DNA from: a virus
Length of the DNA stretch: 64,000 nt
IMG/VR virus record: IMGVR_UViG_3300033146_005596
Coordinates: 1 to 64,000 of that record
Reading direction: 5' to 3' (one strand)
Shown here: one piece after another, positions 2,949-55,075 of the stretch
Position numbering within the stretch: the first letter of the stretch is position 1
Layout of the letters: each line of letters opens with the position of its first letter
The notes under the pieces: model-generated
Told to the model about the DNA's origin: nothing
Database searches by the model: none
What the model saw: only the letters and a program-made list of their open reading frames with translations
Made by a program: the position numbers and the translations under genes

Positions 2949-4523
2949 ATGGGTAGAGATTATAAGTTTAGTGAAGATATTAGAAAAGATTTACTAAAGG
3001 GTATTGAAATAGTATCAAATGCGGTTAAAGTAACATTGGGCCCAAAAGGTAGAAATGTATTATTGGGCTCTGTTGCTGGAGCACCTATGGTAACCAAAGA
3101 TGGAGTCTCAGTTGCAAAAGAAATTGAGTTGGATTGTCCTTTCCAAAATATGGGTGTTCAGCTATTGCAGGAAGTTGCATCAAAAACAAATGATGATACT
3201 GGAGATGGTACCACAACTTCAACGGTACTGGCTTATGCTATTGCTAGAGATGGAATGAAAGAAGTAGAAAAAGGTTTAAACCCAATTGGTATTAAAAAAG
3301 GTATTGATTTAGCTGTTATTAAAGCGACTAATTATATAAAAGATTTAGCCAAAAGTATAGACAGCAAAGAAGAAATTAAACAAGTAGCAACCATCTCAGC
3401 AAACAATGATAGCTCAATAGGTGAGTTAATTGCAGATGCTATGGAATCTGTCGGAAAAGATGGAGTCATTACAATAGAGAATAGTAATACAGCTAAAACA
3501 TCAATTGATGTAACTGAAGGTATGGAGATTGATAAAGGGTATTTATCTCCATATTTTGCTGGTGATAGTACTAAGGTCGAAATGGAAAATTCTTATATTT
3601 TATTATGCGACCAGAAAATAACCCATATGGAAGAGTTATTACCAGTACTTGGACAAATTGCTCAAGAAGGAAAATCAGTTTTAATCATAGCAGAAGACAT
3701 TGAAGGAGAGGCTTTAGCTACTTTAGTTATGAACTCCCTGAGAGGTACTATAAACGCAGTCGCTATAAAAGCTCCTAGCTTTGGGGATTATCAAGCAGCT
3801 ATACTTGAGGATATTGCTATTTTGACAGGAGCACAAGTTATATCTGAAAGGTATGGATTAAAACTAAAAGAAGCAAACCTAGACTTGCTTGGAAAAGCAA
3901 GTAAAGTAAAGGTTGAAGCAAACTCCACAACTATTGTAGATGGTTTTAATATACCAGAGGTTTTAGCAACTAGGATTGATTCTATCAAAAAAGAAATGGG
4001 GGACTGTACTTCAAATCATGATACTGAACAGCTCCAAAGTAGACTAGCAAAATTAACTGGGGGTATAGCTGTTATAAAAGTTGGTGCCAACACCGAGACA
4101 GAACTTGTTGAGAAAAAACATCGAGTTGAAGATGCTCTCTCTGCTACTAGAGCTGCCATTGAAGAGGGAATTGTATCCGGTGGGGGTTTAACTTTACTCA
4201 GGGCTAGTGCTAATTTAGATATTGATGGAGAGTTAACCTCGGAAGAAGAGGCTGGTTTTAGAATTATAAAAAAAGCATTACTTGAGCCTATGAAACAAAT
4301 AGCTAGTAATGCTGGTAGAAATGGTGAGAGTATAATCGCTACAGGGCTTGAGGAAAAAAATGGAATTGGCTATAATGCCTTGACTGGTAATTGGGTTGAT
4401 ATGATAAAAGCAGGAATAATAGACCCAGCTAAAGTCACACGATGTGCTCTTGAAAATGCTGCCTCAATTGCTTCTTTAGTTTTAACAACAGAGTGTGCTA
4501 TAGCTCCTCCTAAGCTAGACTAA
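2949..4523 (+). CDS. groEL: chaperonin GroEL (Cpn60)
   Basis: VTLGPKGRNV, TKDGVSVAKEI, GDGTTT, RVEDALSATRAAIEEGIVSGGG, GIIDPAKVTR; no GGM tail. Confidence 0.97.
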   Translation: MGRDYKFSEDIRKDLLKGIEIVSNAVKVTLGPKGRNVLLGSVAGAPMVTKDGVSVAKEIELDCPFQNMGVQLLQEVASKTNDDTGDGTTTSTVLAYAIARDGMKEVEKGLNPIGIKKGIDLAVIKATNYIKDLAKSIDSKEEIKQVATISANNDSSIGELIADAMESVGKDGVITIENSNTAKTSIDVTEGMEIDKGYLSPYFAGDSTKVEMENSYILLCDQKITHMEELLPVLGQIAQEGKSVLIIAEDIEGEALATLVMNSLRGTINAVAIKAPSFGDYQAAILEDIAILTGAQVISERYGLKLKEANLDLLGKASKVKVEANSTTIVDGFNIPEVLATRIDSIKKEMGDCTSNHDTEQLQSRLAKLTGGIAVIKVGANTETELVEKKHRVEDALSATRAAIEEGIVSGGGLTLLRASANLDIDGELTSEEEAGFRIIKKALLEPMKQIASNAGRNGESIIATGLEEKNGIGYNALTGNWVDMIKAGIIDPAKVTRCALENAASIASLVLTTECAIAPPKLD

Positions 4524-4586
4524 ACATCAATGCTCTCTTCTGAACTAGCAAATTGGGAAGACCTTTATGTTGGTGACTATCTTTTT

Positions 4587-4623: not shown

Positions 4624-4627
4624 AATA

Positions 4628-5038
4628 TTAGACTAGACTAGCTAGTTTATACCTTACTTTAGCTTTTATAAATAAATCCCTGAGGTCTCTATAATTGGAC
4701 CTTGGATTGATTGTACCAATTTCATAAATGTAGGTATTAGTTGGTTGTTCCGTTAATCCATCATTCTTATAGAATTGTCTGACTCTAAACTGGCCTTTTT
4801 GTGCTTCTTGTATGAGGTATGATAAGGCTGTATTTTTTAAGCTATGCTCTTTATCAAATATAAACTCAACATGAATATTATTTGATGTTCCACTATGTAC
4901 TTTTGGTAGAGTAGTGGATTCGGCACCGGGTACCGTTTGATAGATGTTATCTGCTAAATCAACAAGTACAATGGGTACCGTTTGATAGATGTAATCTGCT
5001 AAATCAACAAGTTCAAGTTCAAGAGTATAATCTTTCAT
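4628..5038 (-). CDS. hypothetical early protein with an internal 15-aa duplication (probable start MKDYT at 5038)
   Basis: SD GGAG and ATGA overlap with the upstream stop; LVDLADYIYQTVP/LVDLADNIYQTVP; ends KAKVRYKLASLV. Confidence 0.65.
   Translation of the reverse strand: MKDYTLELELVDLADYIYQTVPIVLVDLADNIYQTVPGAESTTLPKVHSGTSNNIHVEFIFDKEHSLKNTALSYLIQEAQKGQFRVRQFYKNDGLTEQPTNTYIYEIGTINPRSNYRDLRDLFIKAKVRYKLASLV
4928..5012. repeat. 45-bp tandem duplication
   Basis: GGGTACCGTTTGATAGATGT(T/A)ATCTGCTAAATCAACAAGT at 4928 and 4973. Confidence 0.9.
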
Positions 5039-5352: not shown

Positions 5353-5476
5353 ATCTAGCTCTTTGCTCCATAATTTCTTTATTTCTATTTCTCGGATGAA
5401 AGCTAGGCAACTGAAGCATAAGGCTCTAACTCCATTTATGCCCAGTGTACTTTGGTACCATTACTATTATCTAGTC

Positions 5477-6772
5477 TTAGACAGTAAAAACAGTAGCCTC
5501 ATCTTTATCGGTTCTGATGATAGCTAGCCAAGATGGAAATCTTAGTGAATAACTACCTCGAGCATTTTTAGATACCTCGAAATATTTAATTTCAACTAGC
5601 TGTCCTAGTAACTCTTTCTGACCCTCATCAGACCAGTATTTAGTTCTTTCAGCATCAGATAAACCAGTACCAACTCCAACCTCATAGAGAGAGCCATTAA
5701 CTTCTAGCTCAACTATGATATTTCCGCATTTTCCAGCATATTTTCCTTTGCCTTCTTCAAATCCAGTAACTCTTAAATCAGCAGTATAAAACTTCTTTAG
5801 CTTAAGTAAATTTTTAGTCCTTTTACCTTCATAAGGGGCATCAGCTATTGCAAGCATAAGTCCTTCTTCTCCACTATTAACAGCTTCCTGAAGCAAACCA
5901 TCGATTACTGAAGTATCTTTTCCAGAATAAACAAAATCAATTGGTCTGCAGAATCTGCAACCATTAAGATTTTTTCTACTCTGAGCTTGCCTCTTAGAAT
6001 ATGGTACCAAACATTTATTAGTGCTTAAGTACTTATCAATATCATTGATATAATCAAAAACATGGAATAGTAAACCTTTTTTATTTTCAGATTTAGAGTT
6101 AATAACTTTTACTGATTTTCTATATAAATCAGCACTATTAAGACCATTTGGATTTTCAAGTACTAGCTCACCATCATAAATGCCATTAGGGCAATTGGAA
6201 AGCTCAGCTTTAATATCAACCAAACCTCCAATTACTTTGCCACTTCTAGCATAGCAGGTAACAACTCCATTCTGAACATATGATAAATTTCTAACTCCGT
6301 CTCTCTTGTTTGACAGGATAAACTCTTTTCCTTCAACAAACTTAATATTGTCAAGGTACTTTTGAGCTTTCATAGTCTCAAAAGTTGGAATCATCTTAAA
6401 GCCTCTTGCTTTATTTATAGAAGCAACTCCGCAGCCTAAGCTCAAACTTTTAGTAATAATTTTTTTAAATAAATCTTTTTCTAAATCATCTTTTAAAGTG
6501 CTTTCAAAAGCTTTTACTATACTTACTACTTCTTGTTTTCCAGTATTGTTTTTAAGAACATAGCTCAGAACTTCCTCAGTCTCCACCATGGAGTTTTGAG
6601 TAGAAGCTTTATAGTTATCATAGCTTTTATTTGAAATACCACTAGGGGTCCGACCAAAGGCAAACTTTAGAACCTCATTTATTTCTTGATAATCAAAGCT
6701 TTTTAGTAATGCAACTTTTGCATTTTTACCACTTGTTTTCATAATCTCATTTAAATCTGTATAAACACTCAT
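5477..6772 (-). CDS. lig: ATP-dependent DNA ligase
   Basis: KRDGVR adenylation motif, YDGEL, FHVFD, EGLML, LLKLK, SLRFP. Confidence 0.95.
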   Translation of the reverse strand: MSVYTDLNEIMKTSGKNAKVALLKSFDYQEINEVLKFAFGRTPSGISNKSYDNYKASTQNSMVETEEVLSYVLKNNTGKQEVVSIVKAFESTLKDDLEKDLFKKIITKSLSLGCGVASINKARGFKMIPTFETMKAQKYLDNIKFVEGKEFILSNKRDGVRNLSYVQNGVVTCYARSGKVIGGLVDIKAELSNCPNGIYDGELVLENPNGLNSADLYRKSVKVINSKSENKKGLLFHVFDYINDIDKYLSTNKCLVPYSKRQAQSRKNLNGCRFCRPIDFVYSGKDTSVIDGLLQEAVNSGEEGLMLAIADAPYEGKRTKNLLKLKKFYTADLRVTGFEEGKGKYAGKCGNIIVELEVNGSLYEVGVGTGLSDAERTKYWSDEGQKELLGQLVEIKYFEVSKNARGSYSLRFPSWLAIIRTDKDEATVFTV

Positions 6773-6788
6773 TATAACCCCTTACCTA

Positions 6789-6823
6789 TATAATATAACA
6801 GGCTTTTACTTTTCTGCGCAAAA
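6789..6823 (-). promoter_or_regulatory. class I promoter
   Basis: TTTTGCGCA-N15-GTTATATTATA upstream of the ligase. Confidence 0.7.
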
Positions 6824-6851
6824 TAATAAATAAAATTTTGGTACCATAGTA

Positions 6852-7213
6852 CTAAATATTTTTCAGAGCTAAATAAGCATAAATCTTATTTAATAACTCC
6901 AATAAAGTAATGTCCTTTTTTATGTAGGTTAGCCTACGACAACTCTCACCCGTAGATGTTGTAGCAGTGATACTAAAAATATTGATTGGCTCAAATAAGG
7001 CGCTAAAATTAGGAAAAAGTCCTGGCCTCATATATTTAAAGATAAATTTAGATAGCATCATTTTTTCATAAACATTTGGTCCAAAATGCAACTGCATCTC
7101 ATCTTTATGACCAGTTCTACTAATATAACTTCTTTTGTAGGACTCAGGTGGTAATAGTTCTTTAATCTTAAAAAAAGCTTTCTCCTCCTCAAGAGACACT
7201 TTTAATCTTACCA
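6852..7213 (-). CDS. hypothetical early protein (start near 7213 or 7229)
   Basis: ORF track; ends ELLNKIYAYLALKNI. Confidence 0.6.
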
Positions 7214-8685: not shown

Positions 8686-9018
8686 ATGAATATTAGAGTT
8701 AAAAGAGATTTTAGGGTACCAGGTACCAATATTTTAATTGAATCTGGTGATGTAATCCATATTAGAGAGGCTGCTTCTACTTGGGATGAAATAAGTAGAA
8801 TTTGCAATAATGAGACAGATGAAAATTTAAAAATTGTAGGTGATACTGTTTTATGGAGTGATTTAGACAATTACTCAAAAGCTTATCTAACTTCAGCTGC
8901 TTGGAAAGCAGGTATTTATGTTCCAAAAAGGCCTAATATATATAAGAATACTTTATCTCTTGGAAATAACCCTGAAAAAGTTTTAGCTTTTCTGAAGGAT
9001 AACTTGGACTTAGACTAA
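8686..9018 (+). CDS. putative capsid-internal protein with FRVPGTNILIESGD module
   Basis: N-terminal motif shared with 23633 and 37774, followed by IRE|A; ACTAATTA upstream. Confidence 0.6.
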   Translation: MNIRVKRDFRVPGTNILIESGDVIHIREAASTWDEISRICNNETDENLKIVGDTVLWSDLDNYSKAYLTSAAWKAGIYVPKRPNIYKNTLSLGNNPEKVLAFLKDNLDLD

Positions 9019-9256: not shown

Positions 9257-9380
9257 CATTTATATTTTCTCCAATTCTGTTTTTAGTCATAACACTTATC
9301 TGGTACCATAGTACCAGATAAAAACGGCTGACTAAAAATAAAAGCAACGCCCAACAGTTTATATCGCCATTCACTTTTAT
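9257..9380 (-). repeat. copy 1 of a ~125-bp structured 5' leader
   Basis: near-identical to 10028..10156; stems ATAAAAG/CTTTTAT and TTTTTAGTCA/TGACTAAAAA, plus hairpin TTATCTGGTAC-TATG-GTACCAGATAA. Confidence 0.9.
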
Positions 9381-10030: not shown

Positions 10031-10156
10031 TTATATTTTCTCCAATTCTGTTTTTAGTCATAACACTTAACTTCCTTGGTACTATGGTACCAGATAAAAA
10101 CGGCTGACTAAAAATAAAAGCAACGCCCAACAGTTTATATCGCCATTCACTTTTAT
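10028..10156 (-). repeat. copy 2 of the structured 5' leader
   Basis: matches 9257..9380; the hairpin loop is reverse-complemented relative to copy 1. Confidence 0.9.
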
Positions 10157-10197
10157 TATCAATCAGCCGGAGAATGAACTCTTAGCTTCTTAGCTTC

Positions 10198-11256: not shown

Positions 11257-11305
11257 TCTCCATAGTAACCAGTTTAACTTGAGTGTCTTACTCGCTGATT
11301 ACATA

Positions 11306-11340
11306 TATAATATAACGAAGTTCTACAAGTCTGCGTAAAA
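11306..11340 (-). promoter_or_regulatory. class I promoter
   Basis: TTTTACGCA-N15-GTTATATTATA. Confidence 0.75.
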
Positions 11341-11506: not shown

Positions 11507-11881
11507 TTATCTTATTTCAGACAATGCTCTCAAGCTCTCAATTAGCTTACGATTCTTGCTCTCAGTTATATTCTGAAATATTTCAGCGTCTAAGTCTTTA
11601 ATCTCAGTGGTATTGGTACCAACAAAAACATTAGTTCCACCACCCTCAGCAGAAGGTTGAGGCATTAGAGGTCGAATTAAAGTCTCGGACTCTTGTATAT
11701 TAAAATCTTTCATTCTGGACCAAAACTCAAGAAGTTCTTCAGTGCTAAATTCTGGTATTCTAGCAAGCATTGCCTCTAGTACTATCTTCTCATTTGTCTC
11801 GCTTTCTGTTACTTTTTCCAGACGTTTCAAATAGAAGTTAGAAAGACTTTGTCGCATATCTGGCTGCTCGTTAGTTGTCAT
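11507..11881 (-). CDS. hypothetical protein
   Basis: 124 aa, SD GGAGGAG. Confidence 0.7.
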   Translation of the reverse strand: MTTNEQPDMRQSLSNFYLKRLEKVTESETNEKIVLEAMLARIPEFSTEELLEFWSRMKDFNIQESETLIRPLMPQPSAEGGGTNVFVGTNTTEIKDLDAEIFQNITESKNRKLIESLRALSEIR

Positions 11882-14555: not shown

Positions 14556-15380
14556 CTAATCTCCAAACTCTATTTCTTTTCCGGTACCATACATTTCTTT
14601 AGGTCCATTATATCCTCTAATATCTGTAACAACTCCATCAACTGTTATGTTAGTGGTACCATACTCTGGAAAAGGTTTTTCGGCAATAGCACATATTTCT
14701 TGTATTACTGACTCAGCTGTATTTTTAGGTAAAGCCCAACTCATAGAATCATGTACTGACCCAACTAAGTAACCATCAATTTCATTTTCTTGCAAATAAT
14801 TGTCAATAGCAACTATTGCTCGCATTACAAGCACAGACTCAAAGTTTTGAACATCAGTATTAGCTGCTGTATTATTGATTCCAGCAAATATTCTACTATT
14901 CAGCCTATCATCATCTTCACCTTTTAGTATCATTTCAGGAAAATGCCTGAAAGCTCCGTGGTAGCTTCGTATGAAGCCGTCACGTGAAGCGTTGTTTACA
15001 CTCTCTCGTAACCTCCTACCAAAGCCCGGATATGCAGCAAAAAACTTATTCTTCATGTCAATAGCAACAGCTTTTTGTTTTAAGTACAGCAGTGTTTCAG
15101 AGCCTCTTTGATTCTGGGTTAACATATCTAATATGTTTTCAAGGTCATTTTCTTCTATGTATTTGTTACAGTCTTCCATGCTCCAGGTATTGGCCAGAGC
15201 AATCTTAACAAAGGTTGCAGGTTGTGCACCGAACAACAAACCAAAATTACAATTATGTGTTAGATAACCAGCTTTAGTGGAATTCTGTCGTATTATTAAC
15301 TCGTGGTCTTCTACATTCAAGCTATGAACTGACTCTTTGTTTTCTAGCATTTTAATGCTATTTATTTTTACTCTCTTCAT
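14556..15380 (-). CDS. polA: split-intein C-half (43 aa) fused to the C-terminal part of a family A DNA polymerase
   Basis: MKRVKINSIK...VHSLNVEDH...YLTHN|C, then NFGLLFG (half of motif B), GFIRSYHGAFRHFP, AANTDVQ, VHDS (motif C). Confidence 0.9.
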   Translation of the reverse strand: MKRVKINSIKMLENKESVHSLNVEDHELIIRQNSTKAGYLTHNCNFGLLFGAQPATFVKIALANTWSMEDCNKYIEENDLENILDMLTQNQRGSETLLYLKQKAVAIDMKNKFFAAYPGFGRRLRESVNNASRDGFIRSYHGAFRHFPEMILKGEDDDRLNSRIFAGINNTAANTDVQNFESVLVMRAIVAIDNYLQENEIDGYLVGSVHDSMSWALPKNTAESVIQEICAIAEKPFPEYGTTNITVDGVVTDIRGYNGPKEMYGTGKEIEFGD

Positions 15381-17414: not shown

Positions 17415-18062
17415 TTATATTAAATTTAATTCCCTTAATTTTCTATTAGCTGCTTCACTCCAAGCCATACGGCCATAAACATTATTAGGCGCAAACTGAA
17501 CCTCTGCTTTACCTTCTACTAAAGAAAAAGGCCTGTTATTTATTAAAGTTGCATACTTAGCTTTCACTCCAAACTCTCTTTTAGAATAAGGTATTTCAAC
17601 ATCTTTGAATGGCCAAGCACCTTCTTTGGTACCAATTAGTTTTCCGCTATTTCCAAAAGGAATAGATAATATTGCATCTTGGTCATACTCTTCACCCAAT
17701 TGCTTTAGCACTTTTTCTAATTCGTTATTGTCATCGCCATCAACAGTAGTATTAACAACCCAAAAAGCAGGTTCCTTAACAGGAATTTCTTCCAGAGCAT
17801 CAGATTTAAGATTTTTCCCCCATTCATAGTCTGGGGGCTTGTAGTTTTCAATATAAAAACCAGATACTTTAGTAACCCCAAAGCCTAACTTTAATAATAG
17901 TCCTTTAAGCTCCTCCTGTTTCTGTCGGTTAGCTGCATAAGTTCTTTCATCTCTCCAAGCAGTTATTGCTCCGCAAGCATGCTTTTCCATAGCTTCAAAA
18001 GCTCGTGATAAACTTGACTCTTTCATTGCTTCTTGGTCTAAAAACCTCTGTCTCAAACTCAT
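17415..18062 (-). CDS. phage protein of ESSLSR type, possibly head-internal
   Basis: MKE|SSLSR, GAITAWR, GFYIE, LGEEYDQDAIL; pattern recalled from T4-like phage hypothetical proteins. Confidence 0.55.
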   Translation of the reverse strand: MSLRQRFLDQEAMKESSLSRAFEAMEKHACGAITAWRDERTYAANRQKQEELKGLLLKLGFGVTKVSGFYIENYKPPDYEWGKNLKSDALEEIPVKEPAFWVVNTTVDGDDNNELEKVLKQLGEEYDQDAILSIPFGNSGKLIGTKEGAWPFKDVEIPYSKREFGVKAKYATLINNRPFSLVEGKAEVQFAPNNVYGRMAWSEAANRKLRELNLI

Positions 18063-26027: not shown

Positions 26028-26065
26028 AAAAAGACTAGTACTAGTTTCTTAAGTACTAGTCTTTT
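26028..26065 (+). terminator. intrinsic terminator
   Basis: AAAAGACTAGTACT...AGTACTAGTCTTTT. Confidence 0.75.
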
Positions 26066-26103
26066 ACTTTACAACTTTAATCTAAAAAATGGACTAATTA
26101 AGT

Positions 26104-38296: not shown

Positions 38297-38330
38297 AAAT
38301 GGTACCAAACTTAATTGGTACCATTTTTTA
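38297..38330. terminator. bidirectional terminator
   Basis: AAATGGTACCAA-ACTTAA-TTGGTACCATTT between convergent genes. Confidence 0.75.
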
Positions 38331-42454: not shown

Positions 42455-43510
42455 ATGAATCAAAGAAATATATTTACACAAAAGGAAAATGAGCAATTAG
42501 TCAAACTATTAGGCCTTAAGAATATTAAATGGACTAATGACTCTGCGTTAATTAGCTGTCCTAAACATAAAGATAAAACTCCCTCTCTTTCAATAGATTT
42601 AATCAATGGTATATTCAAATGTTTTAGTTGTGGTTATAGTGGAACACTAAACCAGTTGTTTTATGATAATACTGGACAGTCTGCAAACAAAGCACTAGGA
42701 AAATCAACAAAGCTTTCAAAGTTCGATACCGTGTTTGAAAAGACATCTAATTTTGGTAGATTTTTTAACCAAGAAAAAAACAACGATTCTATAGAAGAAC
42801 TTGATGAATCAATAAACATCCTTCTTCCTAGCTTTGACTTAACGTTATTAGATAGAGAAGTACAGAGATACTTAAGAAAAAGGGGTATTTATTTAGAAAC
42901 AGCAAAAGCTATGAATTTTGGTTATATTAAAAATCAAAGTAAAGTTAATTCTATTAAGCATAATACACGTAAAATAATGACTGTCCAGAAAAGACTAGTT
43001 ATACCTATCTTTGAAAATGGTAAGCTTATATCTGCAGAGCTCAGAGATACAACAGGGCTAAGTGGGAAGAAGGTATTGTATCCAGCTGGTTCTTCTACTA
43101 ACACACTCTATAACCATTTTGAGCTAGATAAAAACTCACCTATCTACATTACAGAAGGACTTTTGGATTTAGCTGTACTAAAGAACTCATCTTTTTTCAG
43201 CAATGCGACTAGTACTTTTGGTACCAGCTCTACAACTCGCAAGCTAAATATAATGAAAACTTTTAAGCATATTGTTTTTATTCCAGATAATGATACACCT
43301 GGAAGAAAAGCAATAGAAGAAAAGTATGAAGTTCTCAAGAGCTATAATATTAAAATAGAAGTTTTAGAAGTTCCAGCGTCTATTAAAGACCCGGGAGATA
43401 TACCAAAAAAATATATATCAGTACAAAATTTATTAGATAAAGGCTGGATTGCAAAAAATACAATTTGTATAGATGACTTTTTATTTAAATACAGTCTGGG
43501 TATTTATTAA
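42455..43510 (+). CDS. dnaG: DNA primase (CHC2 Zn finger plus TOPRIM)
   Basis: CPKHKDKTPS, FKCFSCG, YLRKRGI, RLVIPI, ITEGLLD, PDND, KDPGD. Confidence 0.92.
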   Translation: MNQRNIFTQKENEQLVKLLGLKNIKWTNDSALISCPKHKDKTPSLSIDLINGIFKCFSCGYSGTLNQLFYDNTGQSANKALGKSTKLSKFDTVFEKTSNFGRFFNQEKNNDSIEELDESINILLPSFDLTLLDREVQRYLRKRGIYLETAKAMNFGYIKNQSKVNSIKHNTRKIMTVQKRLVIPIFENGKLISAELRDTTGLSGKKVLYPAGSSTNTLYNHFELDKNSPIYITEGLLDLAVLKNSSFFSNATSTFGTSSTTRKLNIMKTFKHIVFIPDNDTPGRKAIEEKYEVLKSYNIKIEVLEVPASIKDPGDIPKKYISVQNLLDKGWIAKNTICIDDFLFKYSLGIY

Positions 43511-44964: not shown

Positions 44965-45906
44965 ATGTATAATGCTATTCTAATTGACGTTATGAATCTT
45001 TGTTATAGAATTTATGATAAAGATTCTGAGTCAAGCATCAAGAAAATTGATGACAAATATGTATACAAGAATTTATTAAAAGACTTCATAGTTAAAGTGG
45101 AATCAATCAAGAAGGTATATGGTCTAAAAGATACTGAGGTTTATCTATTGTTTGATAATCCTATGAGCCGAGATAAAATTCATGACTCTTTTAAGTATGT
45201 AAAAAGAAACGAAGTGTACAATCCGTACAAAGCAAACAGGATTAAAGATAAAAAAAAGGAGTTTTTTAATACTCTAAACCTCTTGAAATATTTTTATATT
45301 CTAGGTGATAAACATTATCATACAATAAAAGTACAAAACTTAGAAGCTGATGATTTTGTTAAGTCTATTCTTGAGCAGAAAACAACAGAAGATGATAAGG
45401 TTTTAATGGTTACTAATGACTTGGACTGGTGCCGTTATCTTACATGCAATGTTGCTTATTTTCCAGACTTCTCAAAAGAGCCAGTCAATGCAGATGGCTT
45501 TGAAAGAAAATATAATTATATACCTTCTGAGTTTAATCTTGTGCTTAATAAAACATTGTTTGGAGATAAGTCTGATAATATTCCAAGAGTATGTACTTTT
45601 AATGATAAATATTTTGGAGAGTTTACTATGCTAATTGAAAAGCTAGAGAGTATTGATGAATTTTGGAAAGCATTTCAAGCTGGTTTATTTGGTACCAAGA
45701 TTTATGATAAGATTAAAGATAAAGAAAGGCAGCTGCAGATAAACTTTGCAATGACTAGTGTTATTGATGTTGATAAAAATATATTAAAAACACATTTGAC
45801 AAGTGGTAGAGAGTCTAGACTTCAAGAAACACTAACTAAGAGTATTTTCGGAATTAAAAAGGCAAAGCCATTTAGTTTTAGTACAATTCAAAAACCAAGA
45901 AAATAG
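44965..45906 (+). CDS. 5'-3' exonuclease / RNase H (FEN-like)
   Basis: ILIDVMNL, LLFD, YKANR, EADD, TNDLD, GDKSDNIP. Confidence 0.9.
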   Translation: MYNAILIDVMNLCYRIYDKDSESSIKKIDDKYVYKNLLKDFIVKVESIKKVYGLKDTEVYLLFDNPMSRDKIHDSFKYVKRNEVYNPYKANRIKDKKKEFFNTLNLLKYFYILGDKHYHTIKVQNLEADDFVKSILEQKTTEDDKVLMVTNDLDWCRYLTCNVAYFPDFSKEPVNADGFERKYNYIPSEFNLVLNKTLFGDKSDNIPRVCTFNDKYFGEFTMLIEKLESIDEFWKAFQAGLFGTKIYDKIKDKERQLQINFAMTSVIDVDKNILKTHLTSGRESRLQETLTKSIFGIKKAKPFSFSTIQKPRK

Positions 45907-46880: not shown

Positions 46881-46891
46881 AGGAGAATAAT

Positions 46892-47556: not shown

Positions 47557-48654
47557 ATGAGTTACACAGAAGCAATACAATATTATAATCATGAAAACTA
47601 TGCAAATACATATTACACTAGTCAGATGGTCCTTGAGACTTTTCTGGCTAATCAATTATTTAAAGGCGATTTATCTAGAATACAATTTGCGTCTGATGCT
47701 TTTATGTTTAGAAAGCGGCTTGACTCAGTGGACAGTAAATCTGATAATTTTGTTGCTCAGAATTTAAACTTTCCTTTTATGTCCTATTGGTATCAAGGCT
47801 TTTGGGAACATGATGACAGACCGTTTGCAAAAAGTACAGCACAACGTGTACTGGGCCACGAAATTGAAATCCAAGGACAAAACATGAAAGCTATGGCTGT
47901 AAAAACTACAATGAAGTTTACTGTCATGTTTAGTAGAGATGATGATGCAAGGCTAGCTAATGAGATTTTAATGTGGACTCAAGGACCTATAGATATTAGA
48001 TTAAAATCAACTATTCTTTGGAAAAATACCCCAATTGAGCTGCCCTCTTTCTTTAAAATAGATAAGATAGCTTATAATGATAAAGCATATAATGAGGTTG
48101 ATTGGCTAGAAAAAAATAGGATTATTCCTATCACCTTTGAAGTTGTTTTGAGAACTTATGTACTGGGCCCTAACACACAAGACTCTGGACAGTATGTAAA
48201 AGAAGGAAATACTTTTAATTTAACTGAAGAATCAACTTTACAGTTTATAGCTGGAAAAAACTTGTCGGACGACCCAGAAATGATAGAAGATACAGTACAT
48301 GCTTATTTTAACCCTGAGGTTGCCATTACCCTGGATAATGTTTGGATTGATAATCAGGAAACAAATGCCCTAACTTTAAACTGGAGCTACACTGAAGATG
48401 TGCCAGACTCAGTGGGGAAAATTAAAATAGTTGGTAATGGCATCGAAACAATAGAAATTACTGATGATATAATCACAACAATGTCCCAGATAATAACTGG
48501 ATTGAAATCTAATAGCACTTACCGTTTTCATATTTATTTTTATTTAACTAATGGTCAGGTAACTATGCAAGGTGTTAATGGTACCACACTTTTCGACCCA
48601 GAAGAACCAGGAAAGCTAGGACAACTAGAAGACGCAATAGGATTCAAGTTTTAA
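47557..48654 (+). CDS. tail terminator/neck-like protein with C-terminal FN3-like domain
   Basis: NFPFMSY; LTLNW...ITGLKSNSTYRFHI; upstream of the sheath gene. Confidence 0.55.
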   Translation: MSYTEAIQYYNHENYANTYYTSQMVLETFLANQLFKGDLSRIQFASDAFMFRKRLDSVDSKSDNFVAQNLNFPFMSYWYQGFWEHDDRPFAKSTAQRVLGHEIEIQGQNMKAMAVKTTMKFTVMFSRDDDARLANEILMWTQGPIDIRLKSTILWKNTPIELPSFFKIDKIAYNDKAYNEVDWLEKNRIIPITFEVVLRTYVLGPNTQDSGQYVKEGNTFNLTEESTLQFIAGKNLSDDPEMIEDTVHAYFNPEVAITLDNVWIDNQETNALTLNWSYTEDVPDSVGKIKIVGNGIETIEITDDIITTMSQIITGLKSNSTYRFHIYFYLTNGQVTMQGVNGTTLFDPEEPGKLGQLEDAIGFKF

Positions 48655-48719: not shown

Positions 48720-50546
48720 ATGGAAACATATAGAGTAAAGTTTACAGATATAGACTCAAGCGAGATATTTTTGGATGAGGCTAAAGGACTAAAAGGCTTT
48801 TTTAATATTTCAGCACCTAAAGGTAATAAAGCAGGATTCCTTTTTCCAAAAGGAGCTGAAGCAACTATTAAAAGACTTATTGGTTATCCTAGTGCAACTT
48901 ACCCAGCTATCCAAGATGTTATTGATTATAACGCAAAATATAGCTGTTATATTGCAGCTCCTACTATTGAAACAACTAAAAAAGGATATGCAGCTATTAC
49001 ACAGTTTGGAGTTTATCCATTCCAATCAGTAGATGGTGATATTTCAGGAGTTGGTGAAGAGTCTGTGGTTCCTATCATAGATGGAGAAGATGGTGCTACA
49101 GTTGCACCTATTGCTGATACTTCAGTAACTATAACACTAACTGCAGATGCTTATGCTAAATATAGTAAGATTTCAGGTTTAAAAGTTAAATTAAACAGTG
49201 TAACAGCCGTTGATTTTGCTGATTTTAATGAGACTACTTTTGACCTAACTATTGATGATGCAACGCTAGATGTTGATAATTATACATTAGATTGGCTGGT
49301 ACCAATTACAGCAGCTAATACACTATTTACTATCTCTCAGGTATCACCAACAGCTTTACCATTAAGAGTAAATATAACCGATTTACAATTTGTTGATACA
49401 GCAGCAGCTGGGTTAGATGCAGCAAAGACTAAGTTCGATTTGAAACTTTCTTATGTTGAAGATAATTATCCAAACAAATATGTATCTCAGGAGATTAGTG
49501 GAAACTTAGACTTTACTTCTGAGTTAGAAGATGGAACTAAAAACTATATTGGTGACAAGATTTCAGAGTACTCTTCTATTGAAATTGCTAATATTAACTT
49601 GGAAATACCTATTGAGACAGGCTATACTTCTTTAACTGGAAGTACAACTATAGCAGGGGAAGCAAGAAATACTTCAGACGTTGCAGCAAACTGGGTTGAG
49701 GGACAGAAAGATATTTATGATGATGTCAAAGTATTTATGGACCCTGAGGGAACTTTAACAGAAGAAACAGCAACTTCTTTAAGAGCTAATAACCAAACCT
49801 CAAGTATTATTTCTATTTTTAACAATTACTCAGTTTTAGAAGGTACTAAGCTATCAAAGGCTGATTCTGAAGTTATTTTGACTGGAACACCTCAGCCTAT
49901 TAAAGGAATAAAAGGCTTTGTACAATATCATAATAAGTTTAAAATATCTGAGTCTTTTACTAATACTAGCTATTGGACATCGTTTATTGGTAAAATTGGT
50001 GTTAAGCTGTCAGACATAATGGTAAAAGCACTAGGAGGAGCGTCTCCTATGTTTTTAGATGATGCAAGAGGCTTAGGTGGTCAGTTAGATGTAGACTTTG
50101 ATAAAATCTTTTATACTTATTCTGAAGATGCTCAGAAAAACTTTGATAAGATTGGTGTTAATGCTATATTCTGGGATAAAAATTATGGTGTATACATTGG
50201 CGGACAAAAAACATCTTTTTCAAGAGTTGGAGTTATATCTGACTGGGGCTACATCGGACATTCAATGGCTTTTGATATTTTTAGAGATAGTGTTAAACAA
50301 ACAGTTCTTATACCTCAAATAGGAAAAGCATTAAGCCCTAAATATTATGAGATTCGAGGAGACCAAATGGCTAAGCTAATCAGTCAGCGGGTTGATGGAA
50401 CTAATCCTATCTGGGCTTCAGCAAGATATGAACATGTGAATAAAGACCAAAATAAAGCTCTAAGAAAGTATGTTGTAAAAGTTTGGGTTAAGGTTTATCC
50501 TTTTGCTGAAGAGACCGAACTAATTTTTGAGAATGAAGCACAATAA
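48720..50546 (+). CDS. tail sheath protein
   Basis: IGVNAIF...GVYIGGQKT...VKVWVKVYPFAEETELIF, typical sheath C-terminus. Confidence 0.85.
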   Translation: METYRVKFTDIDSSEIFLDEAKGLKGFFNISAPKGNKAGFLFPKGAEATIKRLIGYPSATYPAIQDVIDYNAKYSCYIAAPTIETTKKGYAAITQFGVYPFQSVDGDISGVGEESVVPIIDGEDGATVAPIADTSVTITLTADAYAKYSKISGLKVKLNSVTAVDFADFNETTFDLTIDDATLDVDNYTLDWLVPITAANTLFTISQVSPTALPLRVNITDLQFVDTAAAGLDAAKTKFDLKLSYVEDNYPNKYVSQEISGNLDFTSELEDGTKNYIGDKISEYSSIEIANINLEIPIETGYTSLTGSTTIAGEARNTSDVAANWVEGQKDIYDDVKVFMDPEGTLTEETATSLRANNQTSSIISIFNNYSVLEGTKLSKADSEVILTGTPQPIKGIKGFVQYHNKFKISESFTNTSYWTSFIGKIGVKLSDIMVKALGGASPMFLDDARGLGGQLDVDFDKIFYTYSEDAQKNFDKIGVNAIFWDKNYGVYIGGQKTSFSRVGVISDWGYIGHSMAFDIFRDSVKQTVLIPQIGKALSPKYYEIRGDQMAKLISQRVDGTNPIWASARYEHVNKDQNKALRKYVVKVWVKVYPFAEETELIFENEAQ

Positions 50547-51141: not shown

Positions 51142-51177
51142 AAAAGACTTAGTACTACAAAGGGTACTAGGTCTTTT
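51142..51177 (+). terminator. intrinsic terminator
   Basis: AAAAGACTTAGTAC...GTACTAGGTCTTTT. Confidence 0.75.
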
Positions 51178-51754: not shown

Positions 51755-52178
51755 AAGTGTATTACGTGGTAAAAATGAGCTTTTACAAAAAAAGTTTATT
51801 AACAATATATCTTTTGTTGATTTAAACTTTAAATACATCCATGGTGGAGATATTTCTCTATACAAAGGTGATGCTCTAGAAAATGCTGTTTTATTATGGT
51901 TAACCAGTGGTCCATATGATTATTATGATAACCCTGGAAAAGGTGGACCACTAGATAAAATTAGTGTTGGAACTTTGATGAGTCCTGAAAGTATAACTGG
52001 ATTTGAAAATAGGTTTATTGCAGAGTTTGATGAAGTTTTTGGGGATAAGTTTACTTTAGTACAAGTGAGCTTAAAACCTGATTTGAAACATAAAAAGTTT
52101 AAATTGTATATAATTGTTTTTGATATTCTTTCAAAAGCATACAGTGAATTTAATATAAACTTGAGGGAAGATAGTTGA
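51747..52178 (+). CDS. gp25-like baseplate wedge / sheath initiator
   Basis: DALENAVLLWLTS...NPGKGGPL. Confidence 0.7.
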   Translation: MNKSVLRGKNELLQKKFINNISFVDLNFKYIHGGDISLYKGDALENAVLLWLTSGPYDYYDNPGKGGPLDKISVGTLMSPESITGFENRFIAEFDEVFGDKFTLVQVSLKPDLKHKKFKLYIIVFDILSKAYSEFNINLREDS

Positions 52179-55075
52179 TGAAAAAGTTCGATGTAGAGTC
52201 TATTAAAAATAGAATGGTTGGAAAAATACAAGAGAGTATTAAGGATATAAACACAGAGAATGGGTTAGAAGAAATTGGCTTGGTTTATGAAGACTCCTTA
52301 ATACAAGCCCTCTTTTCAGCAAGTGCTGAAGTAGAAAGCGAAGTAGTTAGATATGCAGAATATTTGTTAAAAGAGAAGAAATGGACTAAAGCAACTAACT
52401 TATCATCAATAGTTTCTCAAGCAAAATATATTTCATATAGCCCTCATAGAAAAGCATCAGCCACAGGTACCGTTTATTTTTCAGCAGATGAAAGAATTAA
52501 AACTTTACCTTTATCTATATTAAGTGGTGCTACACCAATGCTAGTAGGCGATATAAATATTGGCGATATTGTAGTAGATGATAAAAGCAATGAGTTTATA
52601 GTTATTGCTACACCTGAGCTATCTAGCAACTCAGCTTATGTATCAGCACAGGTTATGCAAGGTATTAAAAAAACACAGTACTCTGTAGCAAACGGAAAAC
52701 CTAATGAGTATATAGAAATAAATAACGACAGCGTTGAAGATGCTGATAATATAGTATCTGGTGCTTTTTTCAAAGTTTATGTGAATGGAGTAGAGTGGAA
52801 TAAAGTTAATAGCTTATTAGCTTCCAGTACAGCTTATAGTCAAGATTACCAAATAATCAACTCAGATGATTTTTCTAAAATATTTGTAGCTTTTGGTAAT
52901 GGCAAAGCAGGACAAAAACTAGCAGAAAACGACAGTGTTAAGATAGAATATATAGAAACAACAGGACTGGATGGTAATGTTTTTACAAATGACAAGGTAA
53001 CTGTTATCAAAAGTTTAATTACTAACCTTGGAACAAAAAAAGTTTATTGTTCTAATAAGTCAAGAATTGCTGGTGGAAAAGACTATGATAGTATTGATAG
53101 GATTAAAGAATTAGCACCAATTGAGTATTTAAAGTTTTATACTATTGGAAATGTTGAGTCTTATCATGAGAATATTTTAAGGTTACAACCAGATATTTCA
53201 AAATTAAAGATTTTTGGTGGCTCCAAGGAGTCTCAGGGAATTACACAAAAACTGATATATATGACAGCTTTATCCAGTGCTAGCACCGACATGTACCAAG
53301 ATAACATTAATAGTGGTAACCATATTTTAGAAAGTTTATCAGCTAAACTGGCTGATTTAAAAAATCCGTCAGATATTCTTGAGTTTTATCCTATTACTTT
53401 TATTCCTATACGAATAGGTGCATCTGTATTTATAAACGAACCACGGGATAGTACTGATAAAATACAAAAGGATTTAGAAAGAGCTCTTTTTATAAAGTAT
53501 AATAAGCATGCTAGAAACTTTCAGGAAAACTTTTACTATTCAGACCTAATTGCTTTACTGCATGAAAATGATAATGTGGACTATGTTAAGGTCCAGATGA
53601 GTACTGTTGAAAGTATGACAAATAATAATTTCAATATTTTTGATTACTACAAAATTTCTGAATACCACAAAAATGATGACCTTTCAAAGAATATCTATTT
53701 TTTAGACAAAGCAGTACAATTTGATTTTAAGTTTAACAACATTTTTAGAGAATCTGAGTTTCCGGGCTTTACTGAAAAGGTAAATGAAACCGGAGATTTT
53801 TTGTTAACTGTGTCAATAATAGCTAAAGACCAAGCCTTAGCTAATAAATCAAGAACTCTATTTTACGACCCAACTTTTACAGAGGACTCACTATTTGTAT
53901 ATGGGTACCATAAAGAGTGGGGTGTCTTCTTGGGTGGTACCACCTACATAAATATTTTATTTGCTACTTGGACTGGTAACGGAACTGATGAAGCATATGT
54001 TATAACACTAGAAGACCCCGCTTCAACGGTAACTCTAACCTATGATGCAACCCCAGGTTCAGATTGGCAAGTATTTAATAGCATGGTTAACCCAGATGCA
54101 GCCCTAGCTATATCTGTAGCTCTTCCTAATAAGTATATAGAAAATATAGAAATGTCAGATGTAGCTAGTATTTCCTATGAGGGCTTTGAACAGTCAGAAG
54201 TACTTTTAGCTGGAGAGCTAGAACCCCGACAAGCCTACTTGATGACAGAAATAAACTCTGTATCAGGAGATGTACGGTATAACTACTGCTATACTATGCT
54301 AAATATAGACATAACTACATATTCAGACTTTTGGGCATCATACTTTAAAGTAGAAGATATTCTAATAAACTCAGAGCTGGAAATCCCTGCAAAAACTACT
54401 ATAATAGATATAAAGCTAAAAGATAACACAGTAATCACAATAAATAAACCCTATGAAATAGCTAGCTTTATTAAGGTTTGGAATGCTAGAAAAATAAAAC
54501 AATTTCCAAAGATAAACTTTAATGTAACAAACTCAACTTGGAATAGTAGAATATTACAATCCTCTGTAGCACCTTTTCAAATAGAAAGATATAAAAAAGA
54601 TTCTAATGGTGTTTATATAAAAAAATCTCCAGTAATAACAGAGTCTGGCTCTGGAGTCAAGCTCTCTTATGAGGAAAGATTTGATAAGTTGTATGACTAT
54701 CCTATTAAAAATTCAAAAGAACATGTTTATTCAGGTAATAGCCCACTTGACAGCTTAGGTGATAGCTTCGATTCTAAAGAGCTAGTAGATGGAATTAAAT
54801 TAAAGTTTAATAATGACTATAGCTCGAATGATGATACTCTGTTTAGTGGTACACTGGATTTACCAGTTGCTTCTTTTTTAGCAGACGACCAAAGTACTTG
54901 GCCTGCAACGGAAGATGGTTTGAAAACACATTTCTTAGAGTTATATCATGTTGATATTTCTGCTATACCTAAGAATAAAAATATAATTGGAATCAATCCT
55001 TATACTTTGATTCATTCTGATTATTCAAATAATGATAGTGAGAGCTTAATTAAAGTGGACGTGATGTATGAGTAA
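52175..55075 (+). CDS. baseplate wedge (gp6/J-like)
   Basis: SIVSQAKYISYSPHRKASATG, VYVNGVEW, FGNGKAG, GGKDYDSIDRIKELAP. Confidence 0.85.
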   Translation: MMKKFDVESIKNRMVGKIQESIKDINTENGLEEIGLVYEDSLIQALFSASAEVESEVVRYAEYLLKEKKWTKATNLSSIVSQAKYISYSPHRKASATGTVYFSADERIKTLPLSILSGATPMLVGDINIGDIVVDDKSNEFIVIATPELSSNSAYVSAQVMQGIKKTQYSVANGKPNEYIEINNDSVEDADNIVSGAFFKVYVNGVEWNKVNSLLASSTAYSQDYQIINSDDFSKIFVAFGNGKAGQKLAENDSVKIEYIETTGLDGNVFTNDKVTVIKSLITNLGTKKVYCSNKSRIAGGKDYDSIDRIKELAPIEYLKFYTIGNVESYHENILRLQPDISKLKIFGGSKESQGITQKLIYMTALSSASTDMYQDNINSGNHILESLSAKLADLKNPSDILEFYPITFIPIRIGASVFINEPRDSTDKIQKDLERALFIKYNKHARNFQENFYYSDLIALLHENDNVDYVKVQMSTVESMTNNNFNIFDYYKISEYHKNDDLSKNIYFLDKAVQFDFKFNNIFRESEFPGFTEKVNETGDFLLTVSIIAKDQALANKSRTLFYDPTFTEDSLFVYGYHKEWGVFLGGTTYINILFATWTGNGTDEAYVITLEDPASTVTLTYDATPGSDWQVFNSMVNPDAALAISVALPNKYIENIEMSDVASISYEGFEQSEVLLAGELEPRQAYLMTEINSVSGDVRYNYCYTMLNIDITTYSDFWASYFKVEDILINSELEIPAKTTIIDIKLKDNTVITINKPYEIASFIKVWNARKIKQFPKINFNVTNSTWNSRILQSSVAPFQIERYKKDSNGVYIKKSPVITESGSGVKLSYEERFDKLYDYPIKNSKEHVYSGNSPLDSLGDSFDSKELVDGIKLKFNNDYSSNDDTLFSGTLDLPVASFLADDQSTWPATEDGLKTHFLELYHVDISAIPKNKNIIGINPYTLIHSDYSNNDSESLIKVDVMYE

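Follow-up and report, generated by a model that had tools for sequence, protein, structure and literature searches.

The window, by which we mean the whole 64,000-nt stretch analysed here, belongs to a phage record in IMG/VR of 126,585 bp (126.6 kb) and contains 26 exact matches to the octamer TGGTACCA. Its hexameric core, GGTACC, occurs 48 times. Gene calls were obtained with our own ORF and codon-score heuristic. Single copies of TGGTACCA are located as follows:

3206–3213, chaperonin (Cpn60) gene 2949–4523(+), GGT ACC frame (Gly-Thr)
5453–5460, non-coding, directly downstream of the ligase gene 5477–6772(-)
6002–6009, ligase gene 5477–6772(-), GTA CCA frame (Val-Pro)
11614–11621, ORF 11507–11881(-), Gly-Thr frame
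14654–14661, ORF 14556–15380(-), Gly-Thr frame
16030–16037, DnaB-like helicase gene 15968–17359(-), Gly-Thr frame
17627–17634, SAM-lyase-family gene 17415–18062(-), Gly-Thr frame
20969–20976, SMC/Rad50-like ATPase gene 20313–22301(-), Gly-Thr frame
22103–22110, second site in the same ATPase gene, Gly-Thr frame
22774–22781, ORF 22398–22823(+), Val-Pro frame
23986–23993, ORF 23633–24106(+), Gly-Thr frame
30728–30735, ORF 29916–31085(+), Gly-Thr frame
33638–33645, ORF 33258–35192(+), Gly-Thr frame
39494–39501, dUTPase gene 39374–39880(-), Val-Pro frame
43219–43226, DnaG-like primase gene 42455–43510(+), Gly-Thr frame
45690–45697, 5'-3' exonuclease gene 44965–45906(+), Gly-Thr frame
48579–48586, ORF 47557–48654(+), Gly-Thr frame
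49297–49304, 608-aa ORF 48720–50546(+), Val-Pro frame
53935–53942, baseplate-wedge-like gene 52178–55075(+), the last octamer ahead of a 17.5-kb gap

A single protein-level comparison shows no conservation of the 49297 site: the sole known relative (61% identical) is gapped at those residues. The remaining octamers in the window occur as pairs. These are given below with related hairpins and a duplication; z values compare folding with that of shuffled sequences.

6839–6854, tandem double TGGTACCA+TAGTACTA in spacer DNA, upstream of the promoter-like motif of the ligase; no stable RNA hairpin (z 0.0)
9301–9316, tandem double TGGTACCA+TAGTACCA in an early-gene leader; 12-bp stem with a 4-nt loop (z -4.4)
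10077–10092, tandem double TGGTACTA+TGGTACCA, a 16-mer that is the reverse complement of that at 9301, inside a duplicated spacer element of ~120 nt; extended stem lost (z -0.8)
27414–27429, one-mismatch double, TGGTACCA then TAGGACTA, 874-aa ORF 26104–28728(+)
35036–35051, one-mismatch double TGGTATCA+TGGTACCA, ORF 33258–35192(+), Val-Pro frame
38297–38326, two TGGTACCA 16 nt apart (38300 and 38316), one in each arm of a bidirectional terminator-like hairpin that separates convergent genes (z -4.9 on the + strand, -4.2 on the - strand)
26030–26066, strand +, terminator-like hairpin with AGTACT in its arms (TAGTACTA at 26036; z -4.3)
51142–51177, strand +, terminator-like hairpin with loop-closing GTAC on both arms (TAGTACTA at 51150; z -6.8)
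4929–5018, 45-bp tandem duplication, each unit starting with GGTACC (4929 and 4974)

All 26 octamers reported by the initial annotation were recovered at their coordinates, and its estimate of about 45 hexamers is close to our count. The means of 100 dinucleotide-preserving shuffles of the window were 0.61 for the octamer (largest 3; 26 reached in 0 of 100) and 4.79 for GGTACC (largest 10). The entire record holds 44 TGGTACCA and 92 GGTACC, corresponding to 0.35 and 0.73 per kb, where composition predicts about 1 and about 10 (GC 32.9% for the genome, 31–35% by 4-kb bin in the window). GGTACC ranks first among palindromic hexamers at 8.8-fold, followed by a word at 3.2-fold. Under Markov models of orders 2–4, with words of only 1–4 occurrences set aside, the most exceptional 6-, 7- and 8-mer of the genome were all forms of this word. 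AGTACT is also frequent (91 vs 43 by composition), but this excess is mostly lost under a dinucleotide-preserving shuffle (z 1.9), which identifies GGTACC as the specific word.

Synonymous shuffles (200 per null, the 10 non-coding octamers left unshuffled) yielded 15.4 octamers when performed per gene, 13.4 genome-wide, 15.5 with dinucleotides preserved and 16.8 with trinucleotides preserved, compared with the observed 44 (z 10.9–17.4 across the four nulls). For GGTACC the same comparison was 92 vs 31–41. The initial annotation would have been refuted by a loss of the enrichment under a codon- and trinucleotide-preserving null; instead the enrichment survives (44 vs 13–17, z 11–17). Non-coding DNA, 10,457 nt in total, contains 10 octamers vs 0.07 expected, an excess of ~140-fold, and 15 hexamers vs 0.96. 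The over-representation of GGTACC and TGGTACCA in this phage is confirmed. These results describe one genome, the record of which is estimated to be 43% complete, so genes of relevance may be missing.

The preferred form of the word is Y-GGTACC-R, represented mostly by TGGTACCA in this AT-rich genome, and the word must be symmetric to be enriched. With A, G or T as the next base, the half-site TGGTA occurs at or below expectation (121 vs 122, 50 vs 72 and 116 vs 121, respectively), whereas TGGTAC is found 210 times vs 57 expected. The enrichment disappears when the central GTAC is altered and persists when the outer base is altered. Among one-off variants, the counts were 22 vs 7 for TAGTACCA, 13 vs 0.8 for CGGTACCA and 6 vs 6.4 for TGATACCA; the central variant TGGAACCA was scarce (1 vs 4.9).

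Most sites (80–90%) stand alone, dispersed among ORFs across 110 kb. Only 1 of 43 octamer gaps is shorter than 549 bp vs 7.5 expected (P = 0.001), at a threshold picked after the data had been seen; the deficit is weak at 300 bp (P = 0.054) and 1000 bp (P = 0.10). Tandem doubles number five (three exact, two with one mismatch) vs 0 in 100 shuffles. Because two of the three exact doubles lack a stable RNA hairpin, the recurring element appears to be the arrangement of sites and not the stem.

The word is used unevenly among gene blocks, the exception being the following region:

55068–69221 (in-window part 55068–64000), strand +, large ORFs that follow the baseplate wedge and, judged by position only, presumably encode tail fibres

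In this block 0 of 22 compatible positions carry the octamer vs 33 of 94 elsewhere (Fisher P = 0.0004), and 5 of 54 carry the hexamer vs 71 of 253 elsewhere (Fisher P = 0.003). We read this depletion as a lineage signal and count it in favour of a dispersed mark.

Based on these observations, we tentatively favour the view, plausible if short of probable, that the word marks the DNA itself at dispersed sites and has been maintained by selection on behalf of a putative reader with two-fold symmetry. The phage lineage would have accumulated and retained the GGTACC mark along its genome, where the duplex site would be recognised by a dimeric DNA-binding protein or enzyme encoded by either phage or host. 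Such a reader is expected to act genome-wide; it might, for instance, mark, organise, recombine or protect the DNA of the phage. Selection for a sufficient number of well-distributed sites would have bent synonymous codon choice and probably the use of some dipeptides, and the same word may have been built into the tandem doubles of early-gene leaders and the stems of terminator-like hairpins in non-coding DNA. We infer both that a protein reads the word and what this reading accomplishes. The ten small early proteins encoded beside the double sites showed no significant Pfam family, including RHH and HTH families, and the sole two matches in this search fell far under their cut-offs.

The same pattern could have arisen neutrally if a sequence-specific repair or mutation bias turned near-matches into GGTACC, leaving sites without function; with one sequence to judge from, we consider such a directional process unlikely. 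Possible forms include methyl-directed or very-short-patch-like repair tied to a GGTACC or GTAC methyltransferase, as in Elhai's model for the cyanobacterial palindrome HIP1, and template switching that perfects small palindromes. A process of this type is proposed for HIP1 and for alternative HIPs, each word having a cognate methyltransferase (PMC4390886). Its action would fit the graded enrichment from hexamer to octamer in all frames and in spacers, the scarcity of central variants such as TGGAACCA, and the reduced use in one block of genes, which slow amelioration of imported DNA might produce. Also, a hairpin loop is inverted between two copies of a spacer element, which indicates that template-switch-like events occur. 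However, a six-frame search of the 126.6 kb, a possibly incomplete record, detected no DNA methyltransferase of five Pfam families (N6/N4, C5, D12, phage Dam and N6_Mtase), no [DNS]PP[YFW] or PCQ motif by regular expression, and neither Vsr nor MutH. The record does encode a candidate antagonist of methylation:

17415–18062, strand -, SAM-lyase-family gene (PF23780, 32.9 bits vs a cut-off of 28)

If active, this enzyme would drain the methyl donor during infection. Methylation-directed repair is disfavoured by these two results. In addition, repair of deaminated bases should leave transition neighbours of the word scarce, yet TAGTACCA, CGGTACCA and TGATACCA are enriched or neutral, and the non-coding sites are placed non-randomly, in tandem doubles and stems. 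The initial annotation had offered a binding, packaging or recombination mark or a methylation-directed repair bias; a mark is still the best type of explanation, the repair bias is weakened, and the search for a cognate methyltransferase or binding protein suggested there returned neither.

It is quite unlikely that the word is an imprint of a host itself rich in GGTACC, which the phage would mirror through long co-residence or to look like self, much as HIP-rich hosts might shape their phages. The genome is clearly under host pressures: GATC is nearly purged (8 vs 385 expected), and GATATC (0 vs 43) and ATTAAT (25 vs 181) are avoided. However, among 401 genomes of one phylum, that of a Herbinix MAG, which we take to be Bacillota, the highest density of the word was ~0.05 per kb (137 in 2.8 Mb) vs 0.35 per kb in the phage, and a reversed-word control was of similar size in those genomes. 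Five genomes chosen for octamer pairs, one of them unpublished, reached just 0.8–4 times the control, and none of 120 genome loci from a pair-pattern scan showed dispersed enrichment. The presumed tail-fibre block, nearly devoid of the word, nevertheless avoids GATC, with 1 site.

A role as a structural building block, in which GGUACC stems in RNA or ssDNA form terminators, leader hairpins or processing sites and coding copies represent spill-over or long-range pairing partners, appears highly improbable. In its favour, folding was tested for 10 segments, non-coding or at boundaries, that contain the word or the variant AGTACT, and 8 of them are much more stable than their shuffled counterparts (z -4.2 to -6.8); U-tracts accompany several. 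At least five stems have GTAC as the loop-closing sequence, and non-coding DNA is ~3 times richer in the word per base than coding DNA. The terminator stem at 38300/38316 and the 12-bp leader hairpin at 9301 both fold as had been described, and GGTACC does mark the edge of the 45-bp duplication. Against this, ORFs contain 34 of the 44 octamers and 77 of the 92 hexamers; these copies are distributed among 59 of 154 genes and have no partner close by. An 8-nt palindrome, moreover, cannot fold on itself. Hexamer gaps below 100 bp (9 of 91) are near a hand estimate of 6.4 for random placement, and most exact tandem doubles, as noted, form no stable hairpin.

The enrichment is independent of coding constraints. 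Genome-wide, 26 octamers are read as nnT GGT ACC Ann, 7 as nTG GTA CCA and 1 as TGG TAC CAn, in line with the earlier observation of different frames, and 10 are non-coding. Of the protein-compatible positions, GGTACC occupies 49 of 199 in frame 0, 10 of 37 in frame 1 and 17 of 71 in frame 2 (24–27% each), and the octamer 33 of 116; control palindromes mostly fill 0–2% (TGGATCCA 0 of 60, TCTTAAGA 3 of 161). The codon pair GGT-ACC was found 49 times vs 9.6 expected, despite ACC representing just 12% of Thr codons. The Gly-Thr dipeptide excess is 1.58 vs 1.21 ± 0.16 for an imperfect control, a difference of ~2 sd. A repeated peptide motif or codon-pair preference producing the word (Gly-Thr as GGT ACC) is hardly tenable and was rejected for this genome on the basis of the synonymous shuffles, the equality of frames and the non-coding excess, together with diverse flanking residues and dispersed sites (median octamer gap ~2.1 kb), even though the Gly-Thr frame accounts for 26 of the 34 coding octamers and other IMG/VR contigs carry dense TGGTACCA arrays, spaced by multiples of 9, in collagen-like G-X-Y repeat ORFs (SGT/NGT...). 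The HIP1-comparable DNA-level signal originally proposed is therefore supported, and is not a by-product of codons, di- or trinucleotides or a repeated protein motif.

GGTACC is a classical recognition sequence of type II restriction enzymes, that of the KpnI/Acc65I type. The phage shows textbook restriction-site avoidance for GATC, GATATC, ATTAAT and ATGCAT, whereas for GGTACC the sign is reversed; the 8.8-fold enrichment implies that no GGTACC-cutting enzyme has been a lasting threat to the lineage. Chi sites and DNA uptake sequences are short words held dense by selection and read by a DNA-processing machine, and uptake sequences often form inverted pairs in terminators. GGTACC likewise occurs in terminator-like stems of the phage. 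Unlike Chi and uptake sequences, which lack symmetry and depend on orientation, the phage word is palindromic and its half-site alone is not enriched.

The closest comparison is with HIP1 (GCGATCGC), the highly iterated palindrome of cyanobacteria (PMC4390886; PMC5861425). HIP1 is enriched 15–300-fold (Xu, Lawrence & Durand 2018, PMC5861425) and reaches a density of ~1 per kb (Elhai 2015, PMC4390886). Conservation between genomes and long-range periodicity have been shown for HIP1. HIP1 is carried by cyanobacterial chromosomes and centred on GATC, whereas the GGTACC word is carried by a phage that has almost purged GATC, is centred on GTAC and is less dense (0.35 octamers per kb). The phage also differs in having a SAM-lyase-family gene and no cognate methyltransferase detected in the 126.6 kb searched. 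Both words lack an agreed function. Like HIP1, the phage word is an 8-nt palindrome built on a hexameric core, strongly over-represented (~17–40-fold, depending on the null), present in all frames and in intergenic DNA, spread and not clustered, and associated with bent codon choice.

The palindromic octamer TGGTACCA is far more abundant in this phage than composition or local sequence context predicts. All 26 coordinates listed for it in the window by the initial annotation proved exact, compared with a mean of 0.61 and a maximum of 3 copies in dinucleotide shuffles, and its core hexamer GGTACC, estimated there at about 45 copies, occurs 48 times (shuffle mean 4.8). The whole record is one contig of 126,585 bp, classed as linear, with 32.9% GC and an estimated completeness of 43% (CheckV); both of its ends fall inside ORFs and a terminal repeat is absent. 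It contains 44 octamers, 92 hexamers and 506 copies of GTAC. Despite a G+C content of one half, TGGTACCA outnumbers every other palindromic octamer of this AT-rich record, and its 44 copies compare with Markov expectations of 1.2 (order 0), 2.6 (order 2) and 13.8 (order 4). GGTACC is the top palindromic hexamer at 8.8 times expectation (runner-up, 3.2 times) and, in a Markov k-mer analysis of the full genome, the most exceptional word for k = 6-8 at orders 2-4, excluding words seen only 1-4 times.

The core is enriched whatever the outer base. Relative to an order-2 Markov model, the first-position ratios are 17-fold for T, 17-fold for C, 5.6-fold for G and 2.2-fold for A, so that the preferred form is Y-GGTACC-R. 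When the central GTAC is changed the enrichment is lost or the word falls below expectation (TGGAACCA, 1 copy versus 4.9 expected), and the half-site TGGTA never exceeds expectation when the next base is A, G or T; the palindromic centre is thus required. Because TGGTA without a following C is not enriched, we rejected a primase half-site in which TGGTA would template an ACCA primer, by analogy with T7. Nor does the word behave as an oriented Chi-like or uptake-sequence-like element, since it is palindromic, and its centre-less half-site is at expectation, with strand counts of 160 versus 127. The flanks outside the octamer carry little information, the base at position -1 being T in 41 of 88 half-sites. 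AGTACT is raised, yet dinucleotide context nearly accounts for it (z 1.9-2.5), whereas TAGTACTA retains a modest excess under a dinucleotide-preserving null (25 versus 14, z ~4). A broader “TRGTACYA family” was rejected as mostly background, AGTACT not being significant under that null.

The best supported mechanism, to which we give tentative preference, is a symmetric reader of Y-GGTACC-R together with selection on its sites. Duplex Y-GGTACC-R would be the recognition site of a two-fold-symmetric reader acting across the whole genome, and selection would keep sufficient sites; some of them, doubled in early leaders, would be possible operators, and others would have been built into stems. 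Both the existence of this reader and its action are what we infer. The “binding, packaging or recombination mark” suggested initially is still the class of explanation that fits best, but the small ORFs adjoining the tandem double sites gave no protein family for a reader.

The analysis is based on one genome and on our own gene calls, in which a simple home-made heuristic of length and codon score gave 154 ORFs (91.7% coding). The recognised features were as follows.

Genes and elements recognised in the record
Window: Cpn60 chaperonin, SNF2 helicase, SMC/Rad50-like ATPase
Window: ATP-dependent DNA ligase, DnaB-like helicase, UvsX-like recombinase, HNH endonuclease
Window: clamp-loader subunit, DnaG-like primase, 5'-3' exonuclease, dUTPase
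Window: baseplate wedge protein
Window 17415-18062, minus strand: SAM-lyase-family ORF, 215 aa (PF23780, E 7e-8, 32.9 bits versus a cut-off of 28)
Beyond the window: family A polymerase piece, PD-(D/E)XK nuclease
Beyond the window: RtcB, RNA ligase
Beyond the window, whole-record 100720-102867, minus strand: NrdD (anaerobic ribonucleotide reductase) gene
Whole-record 83832-84352, minus strand: cluster of four tRNAs, Tyr(GTA), anticodon TTA, Glu(TTC) and Gln(TTG) (ARAGORN)
Window 6780-6815 and 11300-11340, whole-record ~75.5, 100.5 and 106.2 kb, minus strand: copies of a promoter-like motif

The NrdD gene suggests an anaerobic or facultative host. The tRNA with anticodon TTA would decode UAA, a stop codon. 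In the window itself, Rfam and tRNA scans gave no match. The recurrent promoter-like motif consists of T(T/A)(G/A)CGCA, a gap of ~17 nt and then GTTATATTATAT, and lies near the Shine-Dalgarno sequence of several genes. Between divergent genes at whole-record 111702-112065, an AT-rich spacer of 364 nt contains tandem repeats of 25, 33 and 9 nt (AATTTAGGA units) and resembles a replication origin of the iteron type; one TGGTACCA copy lies at its edge (111982).

The octamer is present in 32 genes and the hexamer in 59 of the 154, on both coding strands, at densities of 0.35 and 0.73 per kb, respectively (the yardstick for highly iterated palindromes, HIPs, is roughly one site per kb). Gaps between octamers range from 549 to 17,479 bp, plus a single 16-bp pair (38300/38316), and show no periodicity; two octamer-free stretches extend over 13-17 kb. 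Only 1 of 43 gaps, that of the hairpin pair, is shorter than 549 bp, compared with 7.5 expected at random (P = 0.001, or 0.0014 when sampling is restricted to allowed positions), at a threshold picked post hoc (P = 0.054 at 300 bp and 0.10 at 1000 bp). We regard the even spacing as a hint, not a result.

Heterogeneity between gene blocks is the firmer finding. In the large-ORF block that immediately follows the baseplate wedge gene downstream (whole-record 55,068-69,221), the octamer takes 0 of 22 opportunities versus 33 of 94 elsewhere (Fisher P = 0.0004), and the hexamer 5 of 54 versus 71 of 253 (Fisher P = 0.003). This low-density block is presumed, from its position alone, to encode tail fibres. 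Five of the six block ORFs tested had no PHROG match, and the sixth, a small ORF of 255 aa, matches an esterase/lipase family. Avoidance of GATC continues through the block, which has 1 GATC site. The simplest reading is that the block is an exchangeable module and a more recent arrival from a phage without the mark, in which case the mark would belong to the lineage and build up over time.

Across the whole record GATC is nearly purged (8 versus 385 expected), and GATATC (0 versus 43), ATTAAT (25 versus 181) and ATGCAT (8 versus 43) are also depleted. Such a set is a classical sign of restriction avoidance and may reflect which restriction enzymes the host has. The genome has clearly been shaped by restriction pressure, while GGTACC runs opposite: that one palindrome is almost eliminated and another reaches 9 to 40 times expectation argues for a positive force on a restriction-type word in a virus. 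That the enrichment comes instead from a directional repair process, neutral and acting in place of selection, is unlikely. Searches of all six frames of the record (126.6 kb; 43% complete by CheckV) for the DNA methyltransferase families PF01555, PF00145, PF02086, PF02384 and PF05869 gave no match at E <= 1, and neither methyltransferase motif IV and PCQ nor Vsr and MutH were detected there. The SAM-lyase-family ORF at 17415-18062, judged by its family match, likely has an anti-restriction or anti-methylation function and, if active, its product would strip infected cells of the methyl donor. Furthermore, words one transition away from the palindrome show enrichment or no bias, where a deamination-repair drive would predict depletion. 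These observations weaken the methylation-directed repair bias proposed in the initial annotation.

An imprint from a host that carries the same word is a rather poor prospect. Among 401 genomes from the phylum of a Herbinix MAG, which we take to be Bacillota, the maximum octamer density was ~0.05 per kb versus 0.35 in the phage. A scan of prokaryotic genomes for octamer pairs returned at least 120 loci spread over many phyla, none of the matches listed showing dispersed enrichment, and in the five genomes with the richest loci the genome-wide count was 0.8-4 times that of a reversed-word control (one of them, G008, is unpublished). No host-like carrier of the word was thus found in the pair scan or the 401 genomes. 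In IMG/VR, at least 118 loci had two octamers within 30 nt; many were locally dense, but in the matches listed these were collagen-like G-X-Y repeat ORFs with spacings in multiples of 9, and among those matches no protein was common to the loci and this phage.

Dense TGGTACCA arrays in unrelated IMG/VR contigs, all in G-X-Y ORFs (SGT/NGT/SGS...)
L092, 8033-14165
L065, 8717-10964
L052, 1433-5263

Such arrays are a trap for k-mer screens, and in the screening of viral contigs dispersed enrichment of a word must be told apart from local protein-repeat arrays. We rejected a protein-repeat by-product of this kind for the phage itself: its sites are not confined to one repetitive ORF, and their spacing shows neither multiples of 3 or 9 nor periodicity. 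Searches for relatives gave little. Megablast of 10 kb and tblastn of a 608-aa structural protein, both against phages, found no relative and no match, respectively; the recombinase matched only unrelated phages at <=35% identity, and the chaperonin search was uninformative. Related-locus searches of viral and metagenome contigs found no relative. The structural protein has one homologue, P0002 (61% identity), on a 33.5-kb contig.

Non-coding DNA (10,457 nt by our calls) contains 10 octamers versus 0.07 expected and 15 hexamers versus 0.96. The presence of the word in terminator stems and in the leader hairpin was confirmed, as was the core at the edge of the 45-bp duplication. The copies at 38300 and 38316 form the arms of a two-way terminator-like hairpin, and stems with GGTAC, GTACC or AGTACT beside the loop occur at 26036, 51150, 83.1 kb, 90.95 kb and 105.5 kb; 8 of 10 segments fold with z -4.2 to -6.8. 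Inside ORF 8686-9018 (plus strand), two cores 7 nt apart (GGTACCAGGTACC, window 8715-8727) are a candidate terminator-like mini-hairpin by consensus scan. The stems are consistent with a structural role in RNA or single strands, which we consider improbable as the origin of the enrichment in view of the double sites, where two octamer-type palindromes stand in tandem over 16 bp. Three of these are exact (6839, 9301 and 10077), all in early-gene spacers, and two have one mismatch (27414 and 35036), compared with 0 in 100 shuffles. The sites at 9301 and 10077 lie in the two copies of a duplicated intergenic element of ~120 nt (window 9260-9380 and 10036-10160). Their 16-mers are mutual reverse complements, the central double palindrome being inverted between copies with identical flanks and an altered left arm of the stem. 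Among the exact sites only 9301 folds stably (z -4.4; 10077, z -0.8; 6839, z 0.0), and the double-site arrangement is therefore retained where the stem is not. A local operator array of a phage repressor was rejected, as only three exact doubles lie in early spacers and the remaining sites are single and genome-wide. No DNA-binding family was found in the small ORFs adjoining the double sites.

The idea that coding constraints produce the word is effectively refuted by the use of protein-compatible positions and by synonymous shuffling. As first noted, the word occurs in different reading frames, and by our ORF calls GGTACC takes 49 of 199, 10 of 37 and 17 of 71 compatible positions in the three frames (24-27% each). 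The octamer takes 33 of 116; for control palindromes the figure is mostly 0-2%. Equal saturation across frames favours a cause at the DNA level over one in codon pairs or peptides. As a codon pair, GGT-ACC is found 49 times versus 9.6 expected, ACC being a rare Thr codon (12%) whose share following AGT is at baseline. The Gly-Thr dipeptide is at 1.58 times expectation, compared with 1.21 +/- 0.16 in an imperfect control set, which is only suggestive of a real tendency. Codons were shuffled synonymously under four schemes, 200 times each: within genes, across the genome, keeping dinucleotides, and keeping trinucleotides, the last of which also fixes each 5-mer centred on a third codon position. 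The 44 octamers compare with means of 15.4, 13.4, 15.5 and 16.8, respectively (z 10.9-17.4), and these means include 10 non-coding copies out of the shuffle's reach; for GGTACC, 92 copies compare with 31-41. The enrichment thus persists under the codon- and trinucleotide-preserving null, against which the initial annotation had proposed to judge it.

Returning to the symmetric reader, it is conceivable, if doubtful, that the phage has a “HIP system” of its own. The reader would be a dimeric protein, encoded by the phage, that uses evenly spread Y-GGTACC-R sites (~0.7 sites per kb in the phage versus <=0.05 octamers per kb in the 401 bacterial genomes) to distinguish phage from host DNA. A genome-wide activity would be loaded at the sites, for example shielding from the phage's own or host nucleases, the start of recombination-dependent replication, or compaction for packaging. 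Tandem doubles would also serve as operators of early genes, and imported tail-fibre genes would not yet be marked. If phage-encoded, such a reader could represent a novel means by which a virus labels its DNA as its own. Avoidance of short palindromes is well known in phage genomes, and the enrichment of a HIP-like word in a phage is the reverse of it. To our knowledge, HIP1 has stayed unexplained for 30 years, in large cyanobacterial chromosomes that are difficult to work with. A phage of 127 kb, with ~90 sites, an internal control block of low density and no methyltransferase in evidence, would be a far smaller system for finding what reads such a word.

In the literature searched, we found no report of hyper-abundant GGTACC or TGGTACCA in a phage. 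The main text of Elhai (2015; PMC4390886) does not mention GGTACC or GTAC; its figures and supplements might list other words. Two properties of HIP words are found here, namely a palindromic octamer far above compositional and low-order Markov expectation, and copies in every frame and in intergenic DNA in excess of codon-preserving nulls. A third, set out in the text of Elhai (2015), is that the genome with the word also encodes a DNA methyltransferase cognate to it or to its core; unlike for HIP1, none is visible in this record (43% complete). A fourth, from the text of Xu et al (2018; PMC5861425), is conservation of sites between genomes beyond neutral expectation, and in the protein-level comparison with one relative, P0002, site 49297 falls within an indel. 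As described in the text of these two papers (PMC4390886, PMC5861425), HIP1 and the alternative HIP words of cyanobacteria resemble the present word in being dispersed palindromic octamers that occur in every frame and in spacers and have no agreed function, whereas the present word differs in its viral carrier, its GTAC centre and its lower density.
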